Origin: a virus
Taxonomy: Duplodnaviria > Caudoviricetes
Length of the DNA stretch: 63,596 nt
Direction: 5' to 3' (one strand)
Virus record (IMG/VR): IMGVR_UViG_3300005098_000067
Location: 1-63,596 of that record
Shown: positions 8,804 to 54,648 of the stretch, in pieces
Layout of the letters: each line of letters begins with the position of its first letter
How positions within the stretch are numbered: position 1 is the first letter of the stretch
Position numbers and translations under genes: made by a program
The notes under the pieces: generated by a model
Told to the model about the DNA's origin: nothing
The model's input: only the letters and a program-made list of their open reading frames with translations
Databases searched by the model: none

Positions 8804-8866
8804 ACCCGCCTCCCGTGAGCCAGGCAAGTACCCTCATGCCGCGCGATGCTCTGCGCGGCGGCGGGT
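8804..8866. ncRNA. unassigned structured RNA motif, copy 1
   Basis: Intergenic. Closing stem ACCCGCC/GGCGGGT and inner stem GCCGCG/CGCGGC. Homologous to 9229-9293 with covarying stem. Confidence 0.55.
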
Positions 8867-8872
8867 CGTGAC

Positions 8873-9193
8873 TCAGCGGCTCAAACCGATGCACGCAATG
8901 GGTCGGCCGTCCTTATCACGGATCAACTCGCCGGGTTGATACAGATCAGGACGGTCATACCCAGCCCGGAACATACCCGACACAACGCAGATTGTGTCAG
9001 GTTGGGCATTGGGCAAACCCTCCGGTTCGCCATATTCGGCGACGAAGAGGGGGATTCCCTCGTCGGTCACGCCGACTTGCCGCCGTGTGGCGGCAATGCG
9101 AGCCACGGTGCCGGATGGGGGAATGACCACGATGACGTTTCCCTCGTTGTCGGCGATGTTTAATACATGCGGGGTCAGATTTACGATGTCCAT
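8873..9193 (-). CDS. conserved phage hypothetical protein (NLTPH family)
   Basis: MDIVNLTPH...PPSG.VAR...GLP...VVS...RPDL..PG...RD..G...C pattern, common in phages. Confidence 0.7.
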   Translation of the reverse strand: MDIVNLTPHVLNIADNEGNVIVVIPPSGTVARIAATRRQVGVTDEGIPLFVAEYGEPEGLPNAQPDTICVVSGMFRAGYDRPDLYQPGELIRDKDGRPIACIGLSR

Positions 9194-9228
9194 TTTCCTT
9201 GCTCCTTTCGTTTATTCGTTTTGCGCCC

Positions 9229-9293
9229 CCCGCCCCGTGGGCCGGGCCAGTACCCTCGTGCGCGGGGCGATAGCTCTGTCCCGCGCGGCGGGT
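9229..9293. ncRNA. unassigned structured RNA motif, copy 2
   Basis: Same architecture as 8804-8866. Inner stem GCGCGGG/CCCGCGC; conserved CAGAGC and GAGGGTACT.GCC.GGC.CACGG. Confidence 0.55.
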
Positions 9294-9455
9294 CTAAGTC
9301 CTACACGGAGCCGGGATAGCCCGGGTGCTTCTTGCGCTCCTCCTCGCTCCCGGGCAAAGGGCGAGGCTTATTAGCGCCGCGTTGCTTCTCAGCCGGGGTT
9401 ATGCGCGGCTGGCGCTGGCGACGCCGTTTCTTGCGCAACACTCTTGCCACTTCTA

Positions 9456-9821
9456 TCACCTCCCTTCCTCTTCGCTCTCGCCCAACAGAACCAGGGCCGC
9501 CCACGCCTTGGGGTCATGAGGAGCAAACTCACGGAGTTTTTCGACCGGTTGCGAGAGATACGATTCGCGCAACCACTCTGCGAGCTCTCCCTCCCGCTCG
9601 AAGATCAGCCGTGCTCGCTCCCTGGGCGAGGCGGGCCAGAGATCGTACCGGTGTATCTCCTCCAACGAGAGGCGGTCTGGATACACCACCCGGCCGTGGA
9701 ACCACCGCCCCTCCCGCTCCTGGGGCGGGGAATACGTCTCGCGTTCCGTGAACCCATCCGGCTGACAGCCGAGACCGGGCGGTCGGTTCACATACAAGTA
9801 CACGTGTTCCGGCATTATCAA
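9456..9821 (-). CDS. DarA C-terminal-like (anti-restriction-associated) domain protein
   Basis: Y..RPPGLGCQPDG...HGRVVYPDRLSLEEIHRYDL resembles the DarA_C pattern. Confidence 0.55.
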   Translation of the reverse strand: MIMPEHVYLYVNRPPGLGCQPDGFTERETYSPPQEREGRWFHGRVVYPDRLSLEEIHRYDLWPASPRERARLIFEREGELAEWLRESYLSQPVEKLREFAPHDPKAWAALVLLGESEEEGR

Positions 9822-16921: not shown

Positions 16922-16990
16922 TAGCCTGCCTCATCAGCACCTGGGCGGCTACCCCAAGTGAACTGGGGGCTGAGTCCCCCAGTTTCGGCT
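16922..16990 (-). ncRNA. type II hammerhead ribozyme, canonical core
   Basis: GCC-GAAA-[CTGGGGG ACTCAG CCCCCAG]-TT-[CACTTGGG GTAGCCG CCCAGGTG]-CTGATGA-GGC-AGGCTA. Loop TAGCC can pair with the 3' GGCTA. Predicted GUU cleavage between 16961 and 16960. Confidence 0.92.
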
Positions 16991-16992
16991 CT

Positions 16993-17172
16993 TTACTTAC
17001 CCGCCTCCCGCAATGCGTTCGCGGCCTCCTCTTTCGCGGCCTTCGCAGCCGCATACGCATCCCATTCAGCAGCGGTTGCACCAGAGCGACCATGAACTAT
17101 CAGGGAAAGCCGATTGTACTCCTGCACAGCCTTTTTGTATGCCTCAAGGGCATCGGGTGTTCTCTTTATCAC
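16993..17172 (-). CDS. small helical hypothetical protein
   Basis: GTG start after GAGGAG; stops just before the hammerhead. Confidence 0.5.
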   Translation of the reverse strand: MIKRTPDALEAYKKAVQEYNRLSLIVHGRSGATAAEWDAYAAAKAAKEEAANALREAGK

Positions 17173-17288
17173 TTTCTTTCTCCTCTCTCTTCCAATTGCG
17201 TGGCTTAACCATCGGGGCAAAGTCAACTCGCCCCTATGTTCTCCTTTGAGACTAGACGAGACTAGAGCGACCTCGTGGTCACTCCGAA

Positions 17289-17425
17289 TCGGTCGGGAAG
17301 GGCACGACCCCTTCGACCCGTGCAATATCGAGGTCGACTGCCGCCAAAGGCTATTTCCCCATCGCACCCGATGATAGCCATCCGAACAATTCCGCTCGCT
17401 TGCACTGGGTCCGCCTGCCGACCGA
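17289..17425 (-). ncRNA. candidate structured RNA with tRNA-like closing stems
   Basis: TCGGTCGG/CCGACCGA closing stem, adjacent GAAGGG/CCCTTC hairpin and long-range GACCC-A-GTGCAA/TTGCAC-GGGTC helix. Confidence 0.45.
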
Positions 17426-17809
17426 ATACCCGTTCCAAAGTTTGTAACGCAATGTCGCACTCATTGCCCCTTTATCCGTCCGGTGCGAGTTAACGCCTCC
17501 ATTGCCCAACGGGTATAAAATGGCTCTCTCCGCTTCTAACGGCTCGGACGGTGGGTTATCTATGACTGGGAATTTTCCCCCTGCCTCCAGCAGTAGAAGT
17601 GATGAACGCTCCTGGTGGGTACTGCCAATTCGCCCGGCGCTAAGATTGGCGCCTCCGAGGGCTGTTTCCTTCCGTTTCCTGCCTTGACCTGGGGGTCTTC
17701 GGCGAGCTCCCCGATGGAGAGTGTACTCGGGAAGGCTGCATTTTTGAGATTTCAGAGGGTCGTTCCGTATGTCATTGTTAAGGTTCTGGTCGTTGGGTCT
17801 GTTTTGTAA

Positions 17810-17900
17810 GGGCCTTATTATACTCATTATAAAGGATAAAAGTTAGAATGCGGTTAGAATTTTCATAAAAATTTATTAAAAATTCTTGGATTATGGAAAG
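17810..17900 (-). promoter_or_regulatory. AT-rich island with tandem TATAAT boxes (probable early promoter)
   Basis: TATAATGAGTATAAT at 17817-17831 and TTCTAAC direct repeats. No consensus -35. Confidence 0.5.
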
Positions 17901-17903
17901 TCG

Positions 17904-17919
17904 ACCTTTGCGCAAAGGT
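17904..17919. repeat. palindrome ACCTTTGCGCAAAGGT (core CTTTGCGCAAAG also at 11557, 24694, 43748, 60723)
   Basis: Five exact 12-bp copies seen by eye. Confidence 0.8.
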
Positions 17920-18409
17920 TTGGGAAAAGGACCGATTGTGCTTGGTGCTGCTGGGTTTGCTGGGTGAAAGGGTATAGTGATATGGAAAATGGTAGTGCGT
18001 GGGAGCTGCGGAAGGCTGCAAGGGGCAAGTAAAACGCCCGTTTGTGCTTTGAGCAGCGGGGTTTAGCGAGAATTTAGGATATAGATGATATGGGCCGATG
18101 GTTGCGTTGATTAGCGAGAAGGCTGCATGGAGCATTTTGGGCACCCTGTTGAGCGGGTTGCTGCTGAGTTTGCTGGTAAAATTGGTATGGTGATATGGAA
18201 AGGATAGAGGCGCCGAAGCTAGGGAAGGCTGCGAGGAGGGCGACTTGGTTTCGGCCGTTTGGAGATGGCATAGCCCGGGCCTTTCTCGGCTCCCGAAACC
18301 TGCCTGTGGCCATTGGTTGCTGACGCAGGTTCGCTCCCGCGTCAGCTTTTCGGGATCCGATACGTGATAGAGAGAGGGGTCTTGCGTTTGGGCTGTGGCC
18401 CAAACGCAA

Positions 18410-18443
18410 GAGAGAAAGGGTGTCGGATGACACCCTTTCTCTC
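18410..18443. terminator. perfect 15-bp hairpin, possible terminator or RNA 3' end
   Basis: GAGAGAAAGGGTGTC-ggat-GACACCCTTTCTCTC; the U-tail is weak. Confidence 0.5.
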
Positions 18444-19070
18444 CCCCTGATTAGGTTTTGCGAGGTCGCTTAGGGGACAAAGTGGGACCTATATACCCAG
18501 CCCTCCAGGAGGGCTTTGCTGCCTACACTCCGGGGAAGCTCTTTCGCGGATTGCTTCCTAAACTATCAGGTACTGACTCCCCTCGGTTCCTAGATAAAGA
18601 GCGCCTTTCGGCGTTCCCTGATAGCTACCCGACCCCTGACGTGCCCTATATCCGCGTGGGCTTTCGTGGGTCCTCGGAACGGTATCATCGAGTAGGGCGG
18701 TGTGTCACGTCGCCCCTTTGGCCATGCCGGCCGGCTGGGTTGCGACCGGTTTAGGCGAGGCGCTGCACCTGCTCTGAGCAGGCGGGGTATAATCCCAGAC
18801 TCCTAGTTCCCCCAAGCAACCTCCTATACGCTTAGACGCAAAAATCCCACCCTAGGAAGGCGGGATCGTCTGCTAAGAAAGAGCCCTCCACGTCTCTCTG
18901 CCCCTTTGCCCCTGGCGAAAGAGACGTACAAAGAAAGCCAGTCGAGGTCTGTGCCTCGGGGGCAGAGAGAAGTGAAGGGCTTGAACTCTGATTGTCGATT
19001 TGTGGTCATTGTACGTTCTCTTTCTGTGATAGGGCCGGGCAAAAGGCTCTGTGAAAACCTGTGATGCTTA

Positions 19071-19099
19071 ATTATAAGGGAAAACTACAAAAAAGTCAA
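19071..19099 (-). promoter_or_regulatory. sigma70-type promoter
   Basis: TTGACT-17 bp-TATAAT. Confidence 0.8.
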
Positions 19100-19300
19100 A
19101 TTGGCCTGTTTGGGTACTGTGTAGACCCCTCTGGCCTGGAACTTCTCACCCCGACCCTGCAGATAGCGAATAGCATCCTGCCTGGTCGCAAAAGCTATCC
19201 TATGTCGCCGTATGCCCGGCTGTCCTGGCTCGGGTTCCAACACCACCCAGACCTGGAACCCGCCATAGGAGCGAGCCTCCAAAGTGACTCCGCTTGCCAT
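19085..19300 (-). CDS. hypothetical protein
   Basis: Start MASGVT after AAAGGAG. Confidence 0.5.
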   Translation of the reverse strand: MASGVTLEARSYGGFQVWVVLEPEPGQPGIRRHRIAFATRQDAIRYLQGRGEKFQARGVYTVPKQANLTFL

Positions 19301-19443
19301 CCAATCGCTCCTTTCCCTAAACCTTTCGAGCTCGACCGGCCTGGGATGCAACTTGTGGGGGCAAGCTTGCGTCTACGGGGGCCACCGGCCGAGCTCTGAC
19401 GAAAGGTGCTCCAAACGCGACGACGTTTGGGGGGACTGTGTCC

Positions 19444-19472
19444 ATTATAGCCTAATTATCATCTCCTGTCAA
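19444..19472 (-). promoter_or_regulatory. consensus sigma70-type promoter
   Basis: TTGACA-17 bp-TATAAT. Confidence 0.85.
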
Positions 19473-19750
19473 GCACGGGCCAGAAGGACAAGCATGTAAG
19501 GGTCACCCTTCCTCTTTCCACGCCGCAGCTCTCTAAACCCTGCTCGCTGTAGAAGCAAGGCCAATCGCCACGACGTGAAGCCCGTCAAGTGGTCGTAGCA
19601 GGCATACGGCTGTCCAGGGCGTTTTCCTCCTCCATAAATCCTTGCCAGGGCCTTCTCATCGCTGAGCTCACGCCTCACCAACCAGGCCAGGCAGACTTTC
19701 TCCAAGTCTGGGACCTCTACCCGAAGTGTGCCTCCAGGCTTAAGCACTCG
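19469..19750 (-). pseudogene. C-terminal half of a second class I methyltransferase
   Basis: RVLKPGGTLRVEVPDL...IYGG...HLTGFT...LLQRAGF with no SAM-binding N-terminus and no start. Confidence 0.6.
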
Positions 19751-20238
19751 CAGCGAATGTCTCCCTTCGACCGCCGGGCTGATGGGACCCCTTTCCTGGA
19801 GCTGAGGACGTGCCGCAATGCAATCACTCGAAACCCGAACTGGGGCAAGAGGCTGTGCAGCCTCCGAACTGTGAACCCGTTCCTGTGCGCCATCCCCTCC
19901 CTCTCCTGCAAACCAAAGATGGAATTGAATCCACGCCCCCAGCGGTACTCGAACCCGCCTTGAAGCCAGCACTCAAGCCTGACCTCGAAGTCCGGGCAGA
20001 TGATCGTCAACTTCCCTCCGGGCTTGAGCACCCGGTACCACTCCCGCAGGGTCTCCCCGAGCTGTGAATTCGTCAAATGCTCAATCAGATGCGACGAGAA
20101 AATCTCATCCACCTGTGAGTCAGCATAAGGCAAGGCATGAGCCGGAGCAACAACGTCAGCAGCGGGAGTGGGGTACAGGTCTACCCCAACGAACCCGACC
20201 ATGCGTTTCTTTCCACAGCCGACGTTCAGTCGCAACAT
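19717..20238 (-). CDS. class I SAM-dependent methyltransferase (Methyltransf_11-like)
   Basis: LNVGCG, VGVD, SSHLIEH, WYRVLKPGG and CPD motifs. Confidence 0.85.
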   Translation of the reverse strand: MLRLNVGCGKKRMVGFVGVDLYPTPAADVVAPAHALPYADSQVDEIFSSHLIEHLTNSQLGETLREWYRVLKPGGKLTIICPDFEVRLECWLQGGFEYRWGRGFNSIFGLQEREGMAHRNGFTVRRLHSLLPQFGFRVIALRHVLSSRKGVPSARRSKGDIRCECLSLEAHFG

Positions 20239-20254
20239 CGCCCATCCTCCCCCG

Positions 20255-20488
20255 TCATCCATCCTCACGGAGCCGGGCCGCGCGAGCTTCCAAATCCGCG
20301 ACGAGGCGCTCACGCGCCTGATCCAGGGCTAACCGAGCCGCTGCCAGGTCAATTGCTGAGTCCTCCACAACGGCTTTGAGCGAGTCCTGCGCTTGCTTGC
20401 CCGACTCGTGAACCGCCTCCAGCCGCCTATAGGCGATCTCCAACAGCTGGAGCGCTTCCGCCATGTCTGTTATTCGGCGATCAGGCAT
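20255..20488 (-). CDS. small coiled-coil protein
   Basis: ORF coupled to the upstream gene. Confidence 0.5.
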   Translation of the reverse strand: MPDRRITDMAEALQLLEIAYRRLEAVHESGKQAQDSLKAVVEDSAIDLAAARLALDQARERLVADLEARAARLREDG

Positions 20489-20915
20489 TGCCTCCCTCCA
20501 GAGCTTGTAATCTTTCCTTCACACTCCGCAGCTCCGCCGCCTGCGCCGTGATTAAGTCCGACATCTCCTGGACGCGCCGAGCGTGCCGTTGTTCTGTCTC
20601 GCGTAATGTCTGCAAGAACCTCCGCTCCTGGTCCTCTGAAATCCGCTGCCAATGCTCACGCATGTCCCTCTCAATCGCCAACTTGCGCTCCAGGTCGTCT
20701 ATCTGCTCCTGCATCAAGGCCGATTGCTCCTGGAGGCGCTTGATTTCTGCCAGCCGCTCTTGTGCCAGGGCCAAGAGCTGTTCGAATTGCTGGCTCTCTT
20801 GGCCCATGGCTTTCTTGGCGTCCTCTCGCCTCTCTCTGCGCAAAGAGAAGTAAAGCGCCGCCAGGCTGCAAACTGCTGTAACACTCCACGCCAGCCAGTT
20901 CAACAACTGATCCAT
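20481..20915 (-). CDS. membrane-anchored coiled-coil protein (possible lysis-related protein)
   Basis: N-terminal hydrophobic helix followed by a coiled coil; position after the tail genes. Confidence 0.5.
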   Translation of the reverse strand: MDQLLNWLAWSVTAVCSLAALYFSLRRERREDAKKAMGQESQQFEQLLALAQERLAEIKRLQEQSALMQEQIDDLERKLAIERDMREHWQRISEDQERRFLQTLRETEQRHARRVQEMSDLITAQAAELRSVKERLQALEGGNA

Positions 20916-51596: not shown

Positions 51597-53054
51597 CTAG
51601 ACGACCAATGCCCCCCCGGCTTGTATGCCCCCAAATCGGGCGGCCTCGGCGAGGACGTGTTCAGCGGCATCCGAGAAGTCGTTGAGCTTCTTCACCTCTA
51701 ATCCCTTTGTGTTTCTGTGGAGTGCTTTGAACTGTTGGGCGACCGTGGGGCAGGCCTCGCGGTCTATCTGGAGCAGGGGGCCTTTGTCGGGGTCAATGAG
51801 CCTCCGTACCAGCCTATGGCGTTCTTCACGCCGCATGACCCGCAGGGGGACGACCACCAGGCCTGCCTCGGCGAACGCGGCAAGGGATGAGGGCTGATCT
51901 GGCGGGCAGAAGAAGGGCGTATCCCAGCCGTACTTGTCGGCCAGCGATACTGCTATCTCCAGTTCCCTGGATGGGGTGCAGAAGCGCTCTCCCCGTTCCT
52001 CAATGAGCCAATAGCGGCCCCCTGGGAGCTCAGCAGCGACGACGAAGACGAGCGGGTGATCGAACCCCCAGTCCACTCCTACGCCCTGGGGAGTACGGCG
52101 CAGCTTGGCTACCTCAGGAGCTAGGCGGGAGGCGTGCACCTCGACGGAGAAGCGAGGGAAGATGAGCATTTCGCGCTCCGGGGCGGCCAGGAGTTTCTGT
52201 ACCAGGAAGGTCTCCGCGTCCGAGGATAAGTACTCGTCTATGGCATCGACGCGTCTTACCCAGCCGTCCGCTCTAATGCACCGCCCGCCGCAGAGTGGCT
52301 CTTTCTTGTTCGTTCGCGGGTTCGTCCAGACGAAGAGCGGGCACTTCTCCCGGAGGCAGGTCTCACAGCGCTGCATGGTCTCCCAAAGGCACCATCGGTA
52401 GGTCTTGTACCCCCGCGCCCTTGCTATGGGGAGCAACTCTTGCATGAGCCCGTAGGCTGTGTACCGAGTGCTTATAGCCGCGCGTTGGGGCGGGTTGGCT
52501 TTCGAGCCCGAAAGCATGAGCTGGGCCGTCTCGAAGTTCTGGAACGACCAGAGGTCTATCTCGTCCATGATCAGCCTGTTACAGCGAATGGCCGTGACCC
52601 CTGTAGGCGTGTGACCTGAAAGGGCGCGAACCCAGGACCCGTTCTTCCAGGTGATGCTCCCGGCCACGTTCCGCGCAATGTCGGCAGCTAAAGCTGGCTC
52701 TTTGAGCATGTCGACCAGGTAGCCGTGCCCCCATTCCCCCTGGCTGCCTATGGCCCCATAGTGCGCTGTGCCTGAACCTGGATAGAACTTCGAGGCGAGC
52801 AGGTTCAGGATGGCCAGGTTTCGGGTCTTGCCTGCACCACGAGCGGCCAGGACCAGGGCTCTCTGAACCTTGCGGAAGAACATGTCCGAGACGAACGTGA
52901 AGGGGGCTTGGTGGTCTGGACAGACGGCTACACGGGGAATCTTGAAGCCGAGGACGGCATGGATCCAGGCGTGGAGCGCTTCGGGCGTCTTGGGGCGACG
53001 GCCGGAGACTACCAGGAGCTGCCAAAGGTTGCTGAGGAGGCTTTCGTCGGTCAT
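51597..53054 (-). CDS. terL: terminase large subunit
   Basis: AARGAGKT (Walker A), LIMDEID (Walker B), IST, GVDWGFDHP nuclease motif and C-terminal NDFSDA. Confidence 0.9.
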   Translation of the reverse strand: MTDESLLSNLWQLLVVSGRRPKTPEALHAWIHAVLGFKIPRVAVCPDHQAPFTFVSDMFFRKVQRALVLAARGAGKTRNLAILNLLASKFYPGSGTAHYGAIGSQGEWGHGYLVDMLKEPALAADIARNVAGSITWKNGSWVRALSGHTPTGVTAIRCNRLIMDEIDLWSFQNFETAQLMLSGSKANPPQRAAISTRYTAYGLMQELLPIARARGYKTYRWCLWETMQRCETCLREKCPLFVWTNPRTNKKEPLCGGRCIRADGWVRRVDAIDEYLSSDAETFLVQKLLAAPEREMLIFPRFSVEVHASRLAPEVAKLRRTPQGVGVDWGFDHPLVFVVAAELPGGRYWLIEERGERFCTPSRELEIAVSLADKYGWDTPFFCPPDQPSSLAAFAEAGLVVVPLRVMRREERHRLVRRLIDPDKGPLLQIDREACPTVAQQFKALHRNTKGLEVKKLNDFSDAAEHVLAEAARFGGIQAGGALVV

Positions 53055-54646
53055 TTGTCGTCGTTGGGTGGGCGGAGCAATTCAGGGGCCAAATCCCGAA
53101 TGCCAGCGATCTGCTCCAGCAAGCGTGTGAACTGCTCCTCCTCCATGCCTGCAACGATGACATTCAGGGTTCTAGCGTCTACCTTCGTCCCGGTCTCCAG
53201 CTTGCCCAGCAACCGGCCCAGGAGCGCAATGTCTCCTGAAAGCTGAGCTGAGAGACCGGATGCCTCTTTGGTCAGAGCCCCTCCCAGGGCCACCGACTCG
53301 ATGAGCAACTGGCGAGACAGCCGCGCTGAGTCCATCTGAACTTTTGCCCACATGAAGTTCAACAGGCCCTCGAAGTTGCGACTGCCTAGCATATCGCCTA
53401 GGGCCGCAAATTCATTATCAAACGCGCAAGCTGCCCCCTCTTCATACCTGGGGCATTTGCCCATCAGGGCGCAATCGTCACAGCGCAGCCGAGGCACCCG
53501 AGCCGTGTCCTGACCGGCTCGAAGAGCGTAAACATTGCCCTTCTGCGCCTCGGAGATGGCTGCCTTGTGCTCCGGGGAGAGTGTCACTTGCCGGGGAGGC
53601 TTGTTGCCGCCCCGACCTAACCCGTGCCTTTTACACGCCCCTTCTGTCTCCGGTGACCCACAGGTGCAGATTTCATTTTCATTCACCACGGGCAAGAGCT
53701 CTGGCGGGGGCTGATTCCAATAGTCGAGCTTGCGACGGCGCTGGACCTCCGTCAAATAGGTCTCAAAGTAGGCCCACACCCTGGCATTGACAAAATCTAC
53801 CGCGCGTGCGTCGTCTTCGAGGTAGGGCGTGACCAGCTCCTCAGGGACGGGCAAACCCTTGGCTTCTAGGTCACGGAGCACTTTCTCCCGTCTATGCCTC
53901 CTCTCCCGCAGGTCCCCGGTCTCAAAGTGCCCAATCCCTCGCGCCGGGTCCAGGAAATACGTCGAGCCGTACATCGACCCGGCCTTCCAGGACGTGGAAT
54001 CGACCGAGAAGAACCCCGGCACCTTGTATAGCACCTCCAAAGCTGTCGTGGCAAAGGAGTGCAACTTCGCCCCGTGCTTCCTGCACCTTCCCAAAATCCG
54101 CATCTGGCCGTTCACGCCGGCGAGAATCCCGGTTGAGCCCGCTCCCTGGGTGGCCACATACGGGAACTCCGAGGCCCACTCCTCCCAAACCTGCCAGCAC
54201 CGCCCTCCCACCTGCACGTCCTGGCTGGTATGAAAAACAGGAACGTACTTCTCACGGGGGAATCCGGCCTTGAGCGCCTGCTCACGCCAGGACAAGACCG
54301 TGGGCAAGCCCACGATGCTGTCGATGTCTAGCTCCACAAACGCATCGGCATACTCGTGGAACTCCAGAAGAAACTCCAGGTAGTCGGCCCAGAAGTCCTC
54401 CGGCTTGCCTACGGAGGTCTTGCGCTGCTTGGTGGCAATGAAGCCCGCCTCCGAGAAAAACGAGTGAGCCCCTGAGTCGATCATGACAAACTCGAAGTTC
54501 TTTCGCAGCTGTTCCAGGCGCTCCCGTTTCTTGGCTGGCGATAGTTTGCGCAGGATGACGAAGGACGTCAAGACTGACTTGGCCCCTGCCCGGGCCAGCA
54601 GTTCAATGTCCTTCGCCCTATCCGCCCCTGCCAAACAGAGATGCAT
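53051..54646 (-). CDS. TGT/DpdA-like TIM-barrel protein fused to a terminase-small-subunit-like C-terminus
   Basis: LTSF, MIDSGAHS, ELDID, PVFH, LHSF and SVDSTSW, then QKGNVYALRAG, CxxC...C..C and a helical tail. ATGA-coupled to terL. Confidence 0.7.
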   Translation of the reverse strand: MHLCLAGADRAKDIELLARAGAKSVLTSFVILRKLSPAKKRERLEQLRKNFEFVMIDSGAHSFFSEAGFIATKQRKTSVGKPEDFWADYLEFLLEFHEYADAFVELDIDSIVGLPTVLSWREQALKAGFPREKYVPVFHTSQDVQVGGRCWQVWEEWASEFPYVATQGAGSTGILAGVNGQMRILGRCRKHGAKLHSFATTALEVLYKVPGFFSVDSTSWKAGSMYGSTYFLDPARGIGHFETGDLRERRHRREKVLRDLEAKGLPVPEELVTPYLEDDARAVDFVNARVWAYFETYLTEVQRRRKLDYWNQPPPELLPVVNENEICTCGSPETEGACKRHGLGRGGNKPPRQVTLSPEHKAAISEAQKGNVYALRAGQDTARVPRLRCDDCALMGKCPRYEEGAACAFDNEFAALGDMLGSRNFEGLLNFMWAKVQMDSARLSRQLLIESVALGGALTKEASGLSAQLSGDIALLGRLLGKLETGTKVDARTLNVIVAGMEEEQFTRLLEQIAGIRDLAPELLRPPNDDK

Positions 54647-54648
54647 TA

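Follow-up and report, generated by a model that had tools for sequence, protein, structure and literature searches.

A type II hammerhead ribozyme between reading frames of a phage contig, and tRNA-like elements in neighbouring gene gaps

Introduction

Type II hammerhead ribozymes occur in bacteria, prophages and phages, and Perreault et al. (2011) drew attention to the importance of their pseudoknot for fast cleavage and to hammerheads that flank prophage genes (PMC3088659). Here we examine a predicted ribozyme of this class at 16990-16920 on the minus strand of IMGVR_UViG_3300005098_000067, a linear 63,596-base virus record (Duplodnaviria; Caudoviricetes) with a CheckV completeness estimate of 58% and a GC content of about 0.60; the whole record is called the window below. 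The element was first recognized in an initial annotation made from the sequence of the record. It shares with the RF02276 hammerheads of bacteria, prophages and phages the same core, an open and short stem II, the pseudoknot and an intergenic position among phage genes, as these are described by Perreault et al. (PMC3088659).

Cleavage in living cells has been reported for three type II hammerheads of Desulfovibrio vulgaris, which lie near hypothetical and phage-like genes and were detected by cyPhyRNA-seq (PMC8782182). Those copies, chromosomal in a cultured bacterium, belong to the same class as the predicted ribozyme described here, and they demonstrate activity in vivo for predictions of this kind (PMC8782182). 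Hammerheads also serve as synthetic parts: in Escherichia coli, the insulator RiboJ is reported to raise protein two- to tenfold and transcript about twofold (PMC6206723). Common to RiboJ and the present locus is a hammerhead directly 5' of a standard ribosome-binding leader, a placement that leaves, or here would leave, a hairpin and a 5'-hydroxyl (5'-OH) on the downstream RNA (PMC6206723). The likeness is a functional analogy only and implies no family relationship. RiboJ derives by engineering from the hammerhead of a plant satellite RNA, to which a hairpin was added.

A further group of relevant systems consists of structured RNAs that stand between cistrons as cutting signals. It includes the transfer RNAs (tRNAs) that punctuate mitochondrial transcripts and phage operons, as well as the theta ribozymes found beside phage tRNAs (PMC10879173, PMC4787750). 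The latter are hepatitis delta virus-like ribozymes and have been proposed to trim tRNA 3' trailers (PMC10879173).

In this study, we describe the anatomy of the ribozyme, its setting among reading frames and repeated leaders, and the tRNA-like elements that occupy equivalent gaps of the same operon, and we compare it with type II hammerheads of other viral contigs. The reading that we favour on balance, and hold to be probably correct, is that an active type II hammerhead is embedded in a polycistronic minus-strand phage transcript and cuts it as a form of RNA punctuation. A bolder proposal, which we advance tentatively and with less confidence, is that three kinds of cutting signal are interchangeable in this one operon and fill an equivalent slot: a hammerhead, a true tRNA and tRNA mimics that do not decode.

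Results

Family match and anatomy of the ribozyme

A search with the Rfam Hammerhead_II model, suggested in the initial annotation as a check, matched RF02276 with a score of 46.5 bits against a cut-off of 37 and an E-value of 2.3e-6 for the whole window. The minus-strand letters of 16990-16920 are AGCCGAAACUGGGGGACUCAGCCCCCAGUUCACUUGGGGUAGCCGCCCAGGUGCUGAUGAGGCAGGCUAAG, and the parts of the ribozyme are as follows.

16990-16920, minus strand: type II hammerhead ribozyme, full Rfam match (RF02276, Hammerhead_II), model positions 1-66 of 66
16989-16987 with 16930-16928, minus strand: stem II, open, 3 base pairs (bp), GCC with GGC, from the base-by-base count and the Rfam alignment
16986-16984, minus strand: core GAA (G12-A14), from the base-by-base count and the Rfam alignment
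16983-16976 with 16969-16962, minus strand: stem III hairpin, 8 bp, ACUGGGGG with CCCCCAGU, loop ACUCAG
16961, minus strand: cleavage triplet GUU, H17 = U16961, from the Rfam alignment and the count
16960-16953 with 16945-16938, minus strand: stem I hairpin, 8 bp including one G-U, CACUUGGG with CCCAGGUG, loop GUAGCCG
16937-16931, minus strand: core strand CUGAUGA (C3-A9), from the sequence and the Rfam alignment
16951-16947 with 16926-16922, minus strand: pseudoknot of 5 Watson-Crick bp, loop I UAGCC with tail GGCUA, the tail starting 1 nucleotide (nt) past stem II
Between 16961 and 16960, minus strand: predicted self-cleavage site, 3' of U16961, from the Rfam alignment and the base count

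In the hammerhead residue numbering convention, the catalytic core is complete: C3-A9 and G12-A14 are present, A15.1 pairs with U16.1 (A16983-U16962), and H17 is U and not G. Loops close off stems I and III and stem II carries both the 5' and the 3' end, which defines the type II permutation. The minimum-free-energy fold already contains stems I and III. Relative to the RF02276 consensus, many stem pairs are changed on both sides yet still pair, as judged in the alignment of this one copy. The initial annotation had claimed the core nucleotides (CUGAUGA, GAAA and GUU), stems I and III of 8 bp each with an open stem II of 3 bp, and a pseudoknot between TAGCC of loop I and a 3' GGCTA. The sequence and the RF02276 alignment bear out the core, the base count gives the same stem lengths, and the pseudoknot is present with all 5 pairs of the Watson-Crick type, against the four or more that mark this contact (PMC3088659); the cut that had been placed at 16961/16960 coincides with the site predicted here.

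The hammerhead match exceeds chance. Elsewhere in the window no match to the hammerhead clan appeared, even at E<=1, and the same Rfam family search gave no match in 14 control genomes. A simple descriptor of core plus stems matched the window once, at the hammerhead itself (16990-16920). When the 46 nt between GAAA and CUGAUGA were shuffled, two stems of at least 5 bp arose in 25/20000 cases, compared with the 8 and 8 bp observed.

Reading frames and leader at the junction

The initial annotation had placed the element between a stop codon and a ribosome-binding cassette, and this placement holds: TAA precedes stem II by 3 nt and a repeated leader lies downstream. The order is thus stop codon, 3 nt, ribozyme, about 36 nt with a Shine-Dalgarno site, and ATG. 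The flanking features are listed below, with the length of each open reading frame (ORF) product in amino acids (aa).

17172-16993, minus strand: upstream ORF, 59 aa, GTG start at 17172 behind GAGAGGAG, stop TAA at 16995-16993
16917-16900, minus strand: shared leader cassette AUUAGUUAGCAAAGGAGG, beginning four nt past the pseudoknot tail
16892-16614, minus strand: downstream gene, 92 aa, ATG at 16892-16890

The 17-nt core of the leader, TTAGTTAGCAAAGGAGG, occupies 16916-16900, and 7 nt separate the leader from the ATG. Because it contains UAG in two frames together with a strong Shine-Dalgarno site, the leader resembles a reset-and-restart module. Allowing up to 3 mismatches (<=3), 5 copies of the 17-nt leader are present where shuffles predict 0.06, and 4/5 copies fall within the operon of the hammerhead. 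In exact or slightly varied form it precedes five further genes of this operon.

GC contents at first, second and third codon positions (GC1/GC2/GC3), which are about 0.63/0.44/0.72 in the large genes of the contig, served as a coding reference that separates genes from non-coding frames. The 92-codon gene, with 0.70/0.46/0.70, is coding-like. Searches of protein databases with its product returned only the protein itself and one copy on a 3016-base contig, with no other relatives, so that it is an ORFan; the 59-aa product gave self matches only. A 159-aa frame that runs through the ribozyme (16614-17093) has values of 0.64/0.52/0.64, which are not coding-like. It was rejected as a coding sequence, since its N-terminal part looks non-coding, it overlaps the 59-codon ORF, and a Shine-Dalgarno site and ATG follow the ribozyme. 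Stem III was likewise considered as an intrinsic terminator and rejected, there being no U tract behind it.

Type II hammerheads of other viral contigs

A viral contig collection was scanned with the pattern CCGAAAC..GUH C..CUGAUGAGGCAG, which describes type II hammerheads with the same stem II, and yielded 87 loci. A simple parser resolved 74 of the 86 unique cores and left 12 with bulged stems unparsed. H17 in the 74 parsed cores is C in 67, U in 5 (this copy included) and A in 2. The present ribozyme therefore differs from most viral hammerheads of the RF02276 type in having U at H17, where 67/74 have C, and in nothing essential. A pseudoknot between loop I and the tail with at least 5 Watson-Crick bp is found in 34/74, compared with 203/3700 tail-swapped controls; with at least 4 bp the figures are 56/74 and 666/3700.

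The flanks of these hammerheads are as regular as their cores. Counted over unique cases with enough flank, and with the start required to open at least 40 codons, a Shine-Dalgarno-like word and a start codon lie within 40 nt downstream in 66/78 hammerheads, as against 273/1560 random positions on the same strand. The median distance from hammerhead to start is 27 nt, and in this copy it is 36 nt. On the other side, an ORF of at least 50 codons ends near the hammerhead in 80/81 cases with enough upstream flank, and in 53/80 the upstream stop falls between -1 and +3 nt relative to where stem II begins (median 1; 3 in this copy). Stop codon, hammerhead, short leader and start codon are the standard packing of viral type II hammerheads, and because the survey shows this packing as the norm, the layout around the present ribozyme is not special: it is one more instance of an arrangement known since 2011, and it accords with the description by Perreault et al. 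(PMC3088659). The survey figures (stop at -1 to +3 nt in 53/80, median start distance 27 nt) may serve as a descriptor for annotation.

tRNAs and related structures are rare near the surveyed hammerheads. ARAGORN finds a tRNA in 6/87 loci, and 10 minihelices of the kind defined in the next section were found in 816 kb of these loci.

tRNA-like elements in equivalent gene gaps

The window was scanned for minihelices, in which an acceptor stem of 7 bp stacks on a T stem of 5 bp whose loop is UUCRA. This acceptor/T-arm minihelix is what RNase P recognises. Six were found, all on the minus strand within 12494-16596 (4.1 kb) and each in a gene gap; shuffled windows contained a mean of 0.08, with a maximum of 2 in 100 shuffles.

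16596-16507, minus strand: tRNA-like element a, 90 nt, from the minihelix scan, in the gap next to that of the hammerhead and followed by the same leader
16072-15982, minus strand: tRNA-like element b, 91 nt, paralogous to element a and with a variant of the leader behind it
15284-15193, minus strand: tRNA-like element c, 92 nt, with an exact leader copy at 15177-15161
14131-14013, minus strand: tRNA-like element d, 119 nt, with a tRNA-Thr directly downstream
14008-13938, minus strand: tRNA-Thr(UGU), 71 nt, 70.7 bits in Rfam, followed by the diverged leader GUUAGUCAAGCAAAGGAGG and an ATG at 13898
12567-12494, minus strand: tRNA, 74 nt, 40.4 bits in Rfam (marginal)

A full cloverleaf with a decodable anticodon, taken as the mark of a true tRNA, is present in tRNA-Thr and marginally in the tRNA at 12493-12567, and is not recognisable in elements a to d. 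Rfam scans of the window reported no RNA family besides the hammerhead and these two tRNAs. Elements a and b had no match to the Rfam tRNA model at E<=10; ARAGORN reports element a as 'tRNA-???' with a four-base anticodon. The two elements are 85% identical over a 65-nt repeat, and between them the T stem is changed on both sides (GCGGG/CCCGC in one, GUGGG/CCCAC in the other). The best score for element c was 20 bits with the Rfam tRNA-Sec model, below the cut-off of 47, and element d had no tRNA match at E<=1 in a scan of the whole window. A pattern for elements a and b gave 0 matches in viral contigs.

The slot immediately before the leader is thus occupied by the hammerhead once, by tRNA-like minihelices three times and by tRNA-Thr once, in the last case before a diverged leader. 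The shared leader behind hammerhead, minihelices and tRNA suggests that these are interchangeable cutting signals; it supports this proposal and is not proof of it.

Several smaller observations concern the same elements. Element c and tRNA-Thr have similar trailers (UUAUCGGNUUC...), and in no case is CCA encoded. In the tRNA at 12493-12567, ARAGORN finds the four-base anticodon GCCU, that is, an anticodon loop of 8 nt, and this could be a quadruplet-decoding or a non-decoding tRNA. Between it and an ATG at 12432, a 15-nt unit, GACGAAAGGAUGAAC, is repeated in tandem about 2.5 times at about 12436-12479 (minus strand), each unit containing a Shine-Dalgarno-like AAGGA and then AUG.

Loci with a similar mixture of elements

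The present 63.6-kb contig has one hammerhead, whereas some phage contigs have six or more (L075; L017/L057). Locus L075, an unrelated phage locus, shows the same mix of elements in inverse ratio, namely six hammerheads and one tRNA-like domain. Its region 8830-13416 (minus strand of the locus) contains six Rfam type II hammerheads within 3 kb and, about 1.6 kb beyond them, an 82-nt tRNA-like domain with a 58-bit local match to both ends of the transfer-messenger RNA model, the central 306 positions being absent. All seven elements are followed by the leader (A)CGAGGAGAG..AUG. At L059, two hammerheads and two minihelices lie on one strand.

Loci with homologues of the operon's phrog_1933 gene were also scanned, and a hammerhead was found in 0/20; L093 and L094, both in this set, are arrays of tRNAs. 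As a separate observation, at least 7 sites on the 71-kb viral contig that contributes both L017 and L057 match the pattern for type II hammerheads, and the leader behind every one of them is near-identical (..GAUCAACCGGAGGGACC..) and precedes a start codon.

A literature search at the level of titles and abstract openings found no published description of a mixed scheme of hammerheads and tRNA mimics. The nearest published case is that of the theta ribozymes beside phage tRNAs, as these are outlined in PMC10879173. Unlike theta ribozymes, the hammerhead and the tRNA-like elements of the present operon hold equivalent slots before protein genes, and 4/6 of the elements do not qualify as decodable tRNAs.

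Transcription context and relatives

Nearly all long ORFs of the contig lie on the minus strand, and the hammerhead is on the same strand. Two matches to sigma-70-type promoters are directed toward the ribozyme.

19472-19444, minus strand: sigma-70-type promoter match, 12/12 positions, 17-nt spacer
19099-19071, minus strand: sigma-70-type promoter match, 11/12 positions, 17-nt spacer

Two such matches do not exceed the shuffle mean of 2.0, though both are near-perfect. No terminator-like site was found between these promoters (19472-19444, 19099-19071) and the ribozyme, and within 13000-20500 only the T arm of tRNA-like element c resembles a terminator. Since two promoter matches of the same direction lie upstream without an intervening terminator, the ribozyme most likely sits inside a long transcript.

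Downstream of both promoters, 17173-19060 (minus strand) forms a stretch of about 1.9 kb without a coding-like frame, every ORF in it having GC2 >= GC3. It contains long perfect hairpins (for example at about 18445-18380 and 18985-18885), direct repeats 213 nt apart (17936-17988/18149-18201 and 17997-18023/18210-18236) and an AT-rich patch at about 17830-17900, and it matches no Rfam family. The stretch could be a long leader or non-coding RNA, or a replication or regulatory region.

The search for relatives covered several collections. Comparison of 16000-18000 with GenBank phages by blastn gave no match, and the exact 17-mer of the leader occurs 0 times in viral contigs. A pattern for the 92-aa protein had matches in viral and metagenome contigs, with no relative among them, and no relative of the contig's tail protein was found in genome contigs. 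Contigs from sequencing runs, aligned to 14000-19500, are short pieces only, and they show no differences inside the hammerhead, which one piece spanning 16817-17034 covers. A metagenome scan for hammerheads that share loop I, the pseudoknot and the length of stem I with this copy gave one match, L110 944-1012 (plus strand), on an unrelated low-GC contig. By eye, this candidate has a complete type II core and the same stem lengths, but its stem sequences differ entirely, with all 8 pairs of stem I changed yet pairing; cmscan reports no hammerhead there, either at the cut-off or at E<=1. It lies directly after a TGA and before a Shine-Dalgarno site and ATG.

Discussion

RNA punctuation by the ribozyme

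That the hammerhead punctuates a polycistronic phage messenger RNA (mRNA) is, as said above, the reading we favour; beyond the anatomy itself, we infer that transcription runs through the site, that the RNA is cut in the cell, that stability and insulation are affected, and that the tRNA-like elements are cut. In this mechanism, the nascent RNA would fold stems I and III as hairpins, together with the 3-bp stem II and the pseudoknot between loop I and the 3' tail, and would be cut after U16961. The 5' product, comprising the 59-codon ORF and anything 5' of it, would then carry a 2',3'-cyclic phosphate at its end, flush against the GC-rich hairpin of stem III. The 3' product would begin at C16960 with a 5'-OH, flush against the hairpin of stem I, and would continue with an unpaired leader and then the 92-codon gene. 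In the predicted fold of the 3' product (centroid structure), position 1 is paired in stem I and the Shine-Dalgarno site is unpaired; the 5' product is predicted to end in the stem III hairpin.

Among the hammerhead permutations, it is type II that leaves hairpins on both new ends. RNase E/J attack that depends on the 5' end is impeded by a 5'-OH as well as by a flush hairpin at that end, and a hairpin at the 3' end impedes 3' exonucleases. The stability of both pieces would probably be altered by the cut, and it is reasonable to expect that a 5'-OH on the downstream mRNA would slow decay that depends on a 5'-monophosphate. Cutting would also uncouple both cistrons, with the downstream gene gaining a standard, context-free 5' end, much as a synthetic ribozyme insulator such as RiboJ provides. 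In the neighbouring gaps, host RNase P and 3'-processing enzymes could cut the tRNA and tRNA-like elements, and the hammerhead would then most likely be the enzyme-independent version of one punctuation scheme.

A number of points weigh against punctuation by an active ribozyme. H17 = U is a minority choice, found in 5/74 parsed viral type II hammerheads, and a triplet with H17 = U cleaves more slowly than GUC. The 59-codon ORF has GC1/GC2/GC3 values of 0.66/0.49/0.56, an ambiguous coding signature, and for this reason the ribozyme might lie at the end of a long non-coding leader and not between two genes. No element is present at 15705-15677 or at 14953-14936, both of them junctions of this operon, so that not every gene depends on a cut. 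If a ribosome terminates 3 nt upstream, it would overlie stem II together with part of stem III, and folding might be delayed. Relatives of the phage region were found in none of the collections searched, which leaves this copy without support from conservation or covariation, and no RNA run containing the sequence was found, the sole run being DNA labelled as marine sediment metagenome. Finally, a 2019 review describes the role of bacterial and phage hammerheads as still unresolved, and treats the processing of polycistronic RNA as a proposal in need of further work (PMC6765202).

Alternative explanations

An alternative that we regard as unlikely, yet as the best placed of those considered, is that 3'-end formation is the main job of the ribozyme: the RNA of the non-coding-looking stretch of about 1.9 kb (19060-17173) and the short ORF would be trimmed and capped by a hairpin, any benefit to the downstream gene being secondary. 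It would suit the lack of a coding signature in the ORFs of 17173-19060 (GC2 >= GC3), the richness of that stretch in hairpins and repeats, the two near-consensus promoters that point into it, the ambiguity of the 59-codon upstream ORF and the flush 8-bp GC-rich hairpin at the end of the 5' product. However, the surveyed ribozymes nearly always lie between the stop of an ORF of at least 50 codons and a Shine-Dalgarno site with a start codon, which argues for a role at gene junctions. Trimming of an upstream RNA is moreover the same cut seen from the other side, and it is compatible with punctuation.

We think it improbable that the ribozyme is a conditional switch whose folding is governed by upstream ORF translation (or by a factor), with the result that cleavage reports upstream translation and tunes downstream expression. 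The stop codon 3 nt before stem II, a spacing of -1 to +3 nt that recurs in 53/80 surveyed cases, would oblige a terminating ribosome to overlap the 5' strand of the ribozyme, and possible regulation of hammerheads through changes in folding is discussed by Perreault et al. (PMC3088659). Yet neither a competing structure nor a domain for ligand binding is evident, stems I and III are already present in the minimum-free-energy fold, and the tight packing may reflect mere economy of the phage genome.

Slightly less probable again is a scar of recombination or mobility, with ribozyme and leader forming a portable junction for the shuffling of gene cassettes and cleavage being incidental or lost. 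The leader is present 4-6 times in 3.5 kb and the flanking genes have no known relatives, but all core nucleotides and the pseudoknot are intact, which would be unexpected in a decaying scar, and without relatives no shuffling is demonstrable here. A chance match or inactive relic is very improbable: the ribozyme is a single copy without relatives and its H17 = U is uncommon (5/74), but it scores 9.5 bits over the curated cut-off (E 2.3e-6 for the window), its two 8-bp stems far surpass what the shuffles produced (25/20000 with two stems of at least 5 bp), its pseudoknot is present and its context is typical.

Interchangeable signals and their implications

Taken by itself, the ribozyme is one more clean example of a class whose biological role in phages is described as unproven in a 2019 review (PMC6765202). 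The tentative proposal of a shared slot would give it a wider meaning. If it is true, ribozymes and tRNA mimics would be swappable parts of one system of mRNA punctuation and insulation, a parallel in nature to synthetic ribozyme insulators and to the tRNA punctuation of mitochondria, and the system in this operon would rely mostly on host RNase P and only once on a ribozyme. The operon (about 17.2 to 13.4 kb), with its hammerhead, tRNA, four tRNA mimics, two element-free junctions and near-identical leaders, is a compact natural test bed. It could be used to test phage hammerheads as mRNA punctuation or insulators, and their equivalence to RNase P-dependent signals.

Other regions of the window

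One further observation lies far from the ribozyme, at 53054-54877 and 55394-57639 (minus strand). A 608-aa protein encoded there has a match (E 6e-34) to phrog_887, a family of phage queuine tRNA-ribosyltransferases, and two neighbouring proteins match glycosyltransferase families; this is possibly a DNA-modification module.

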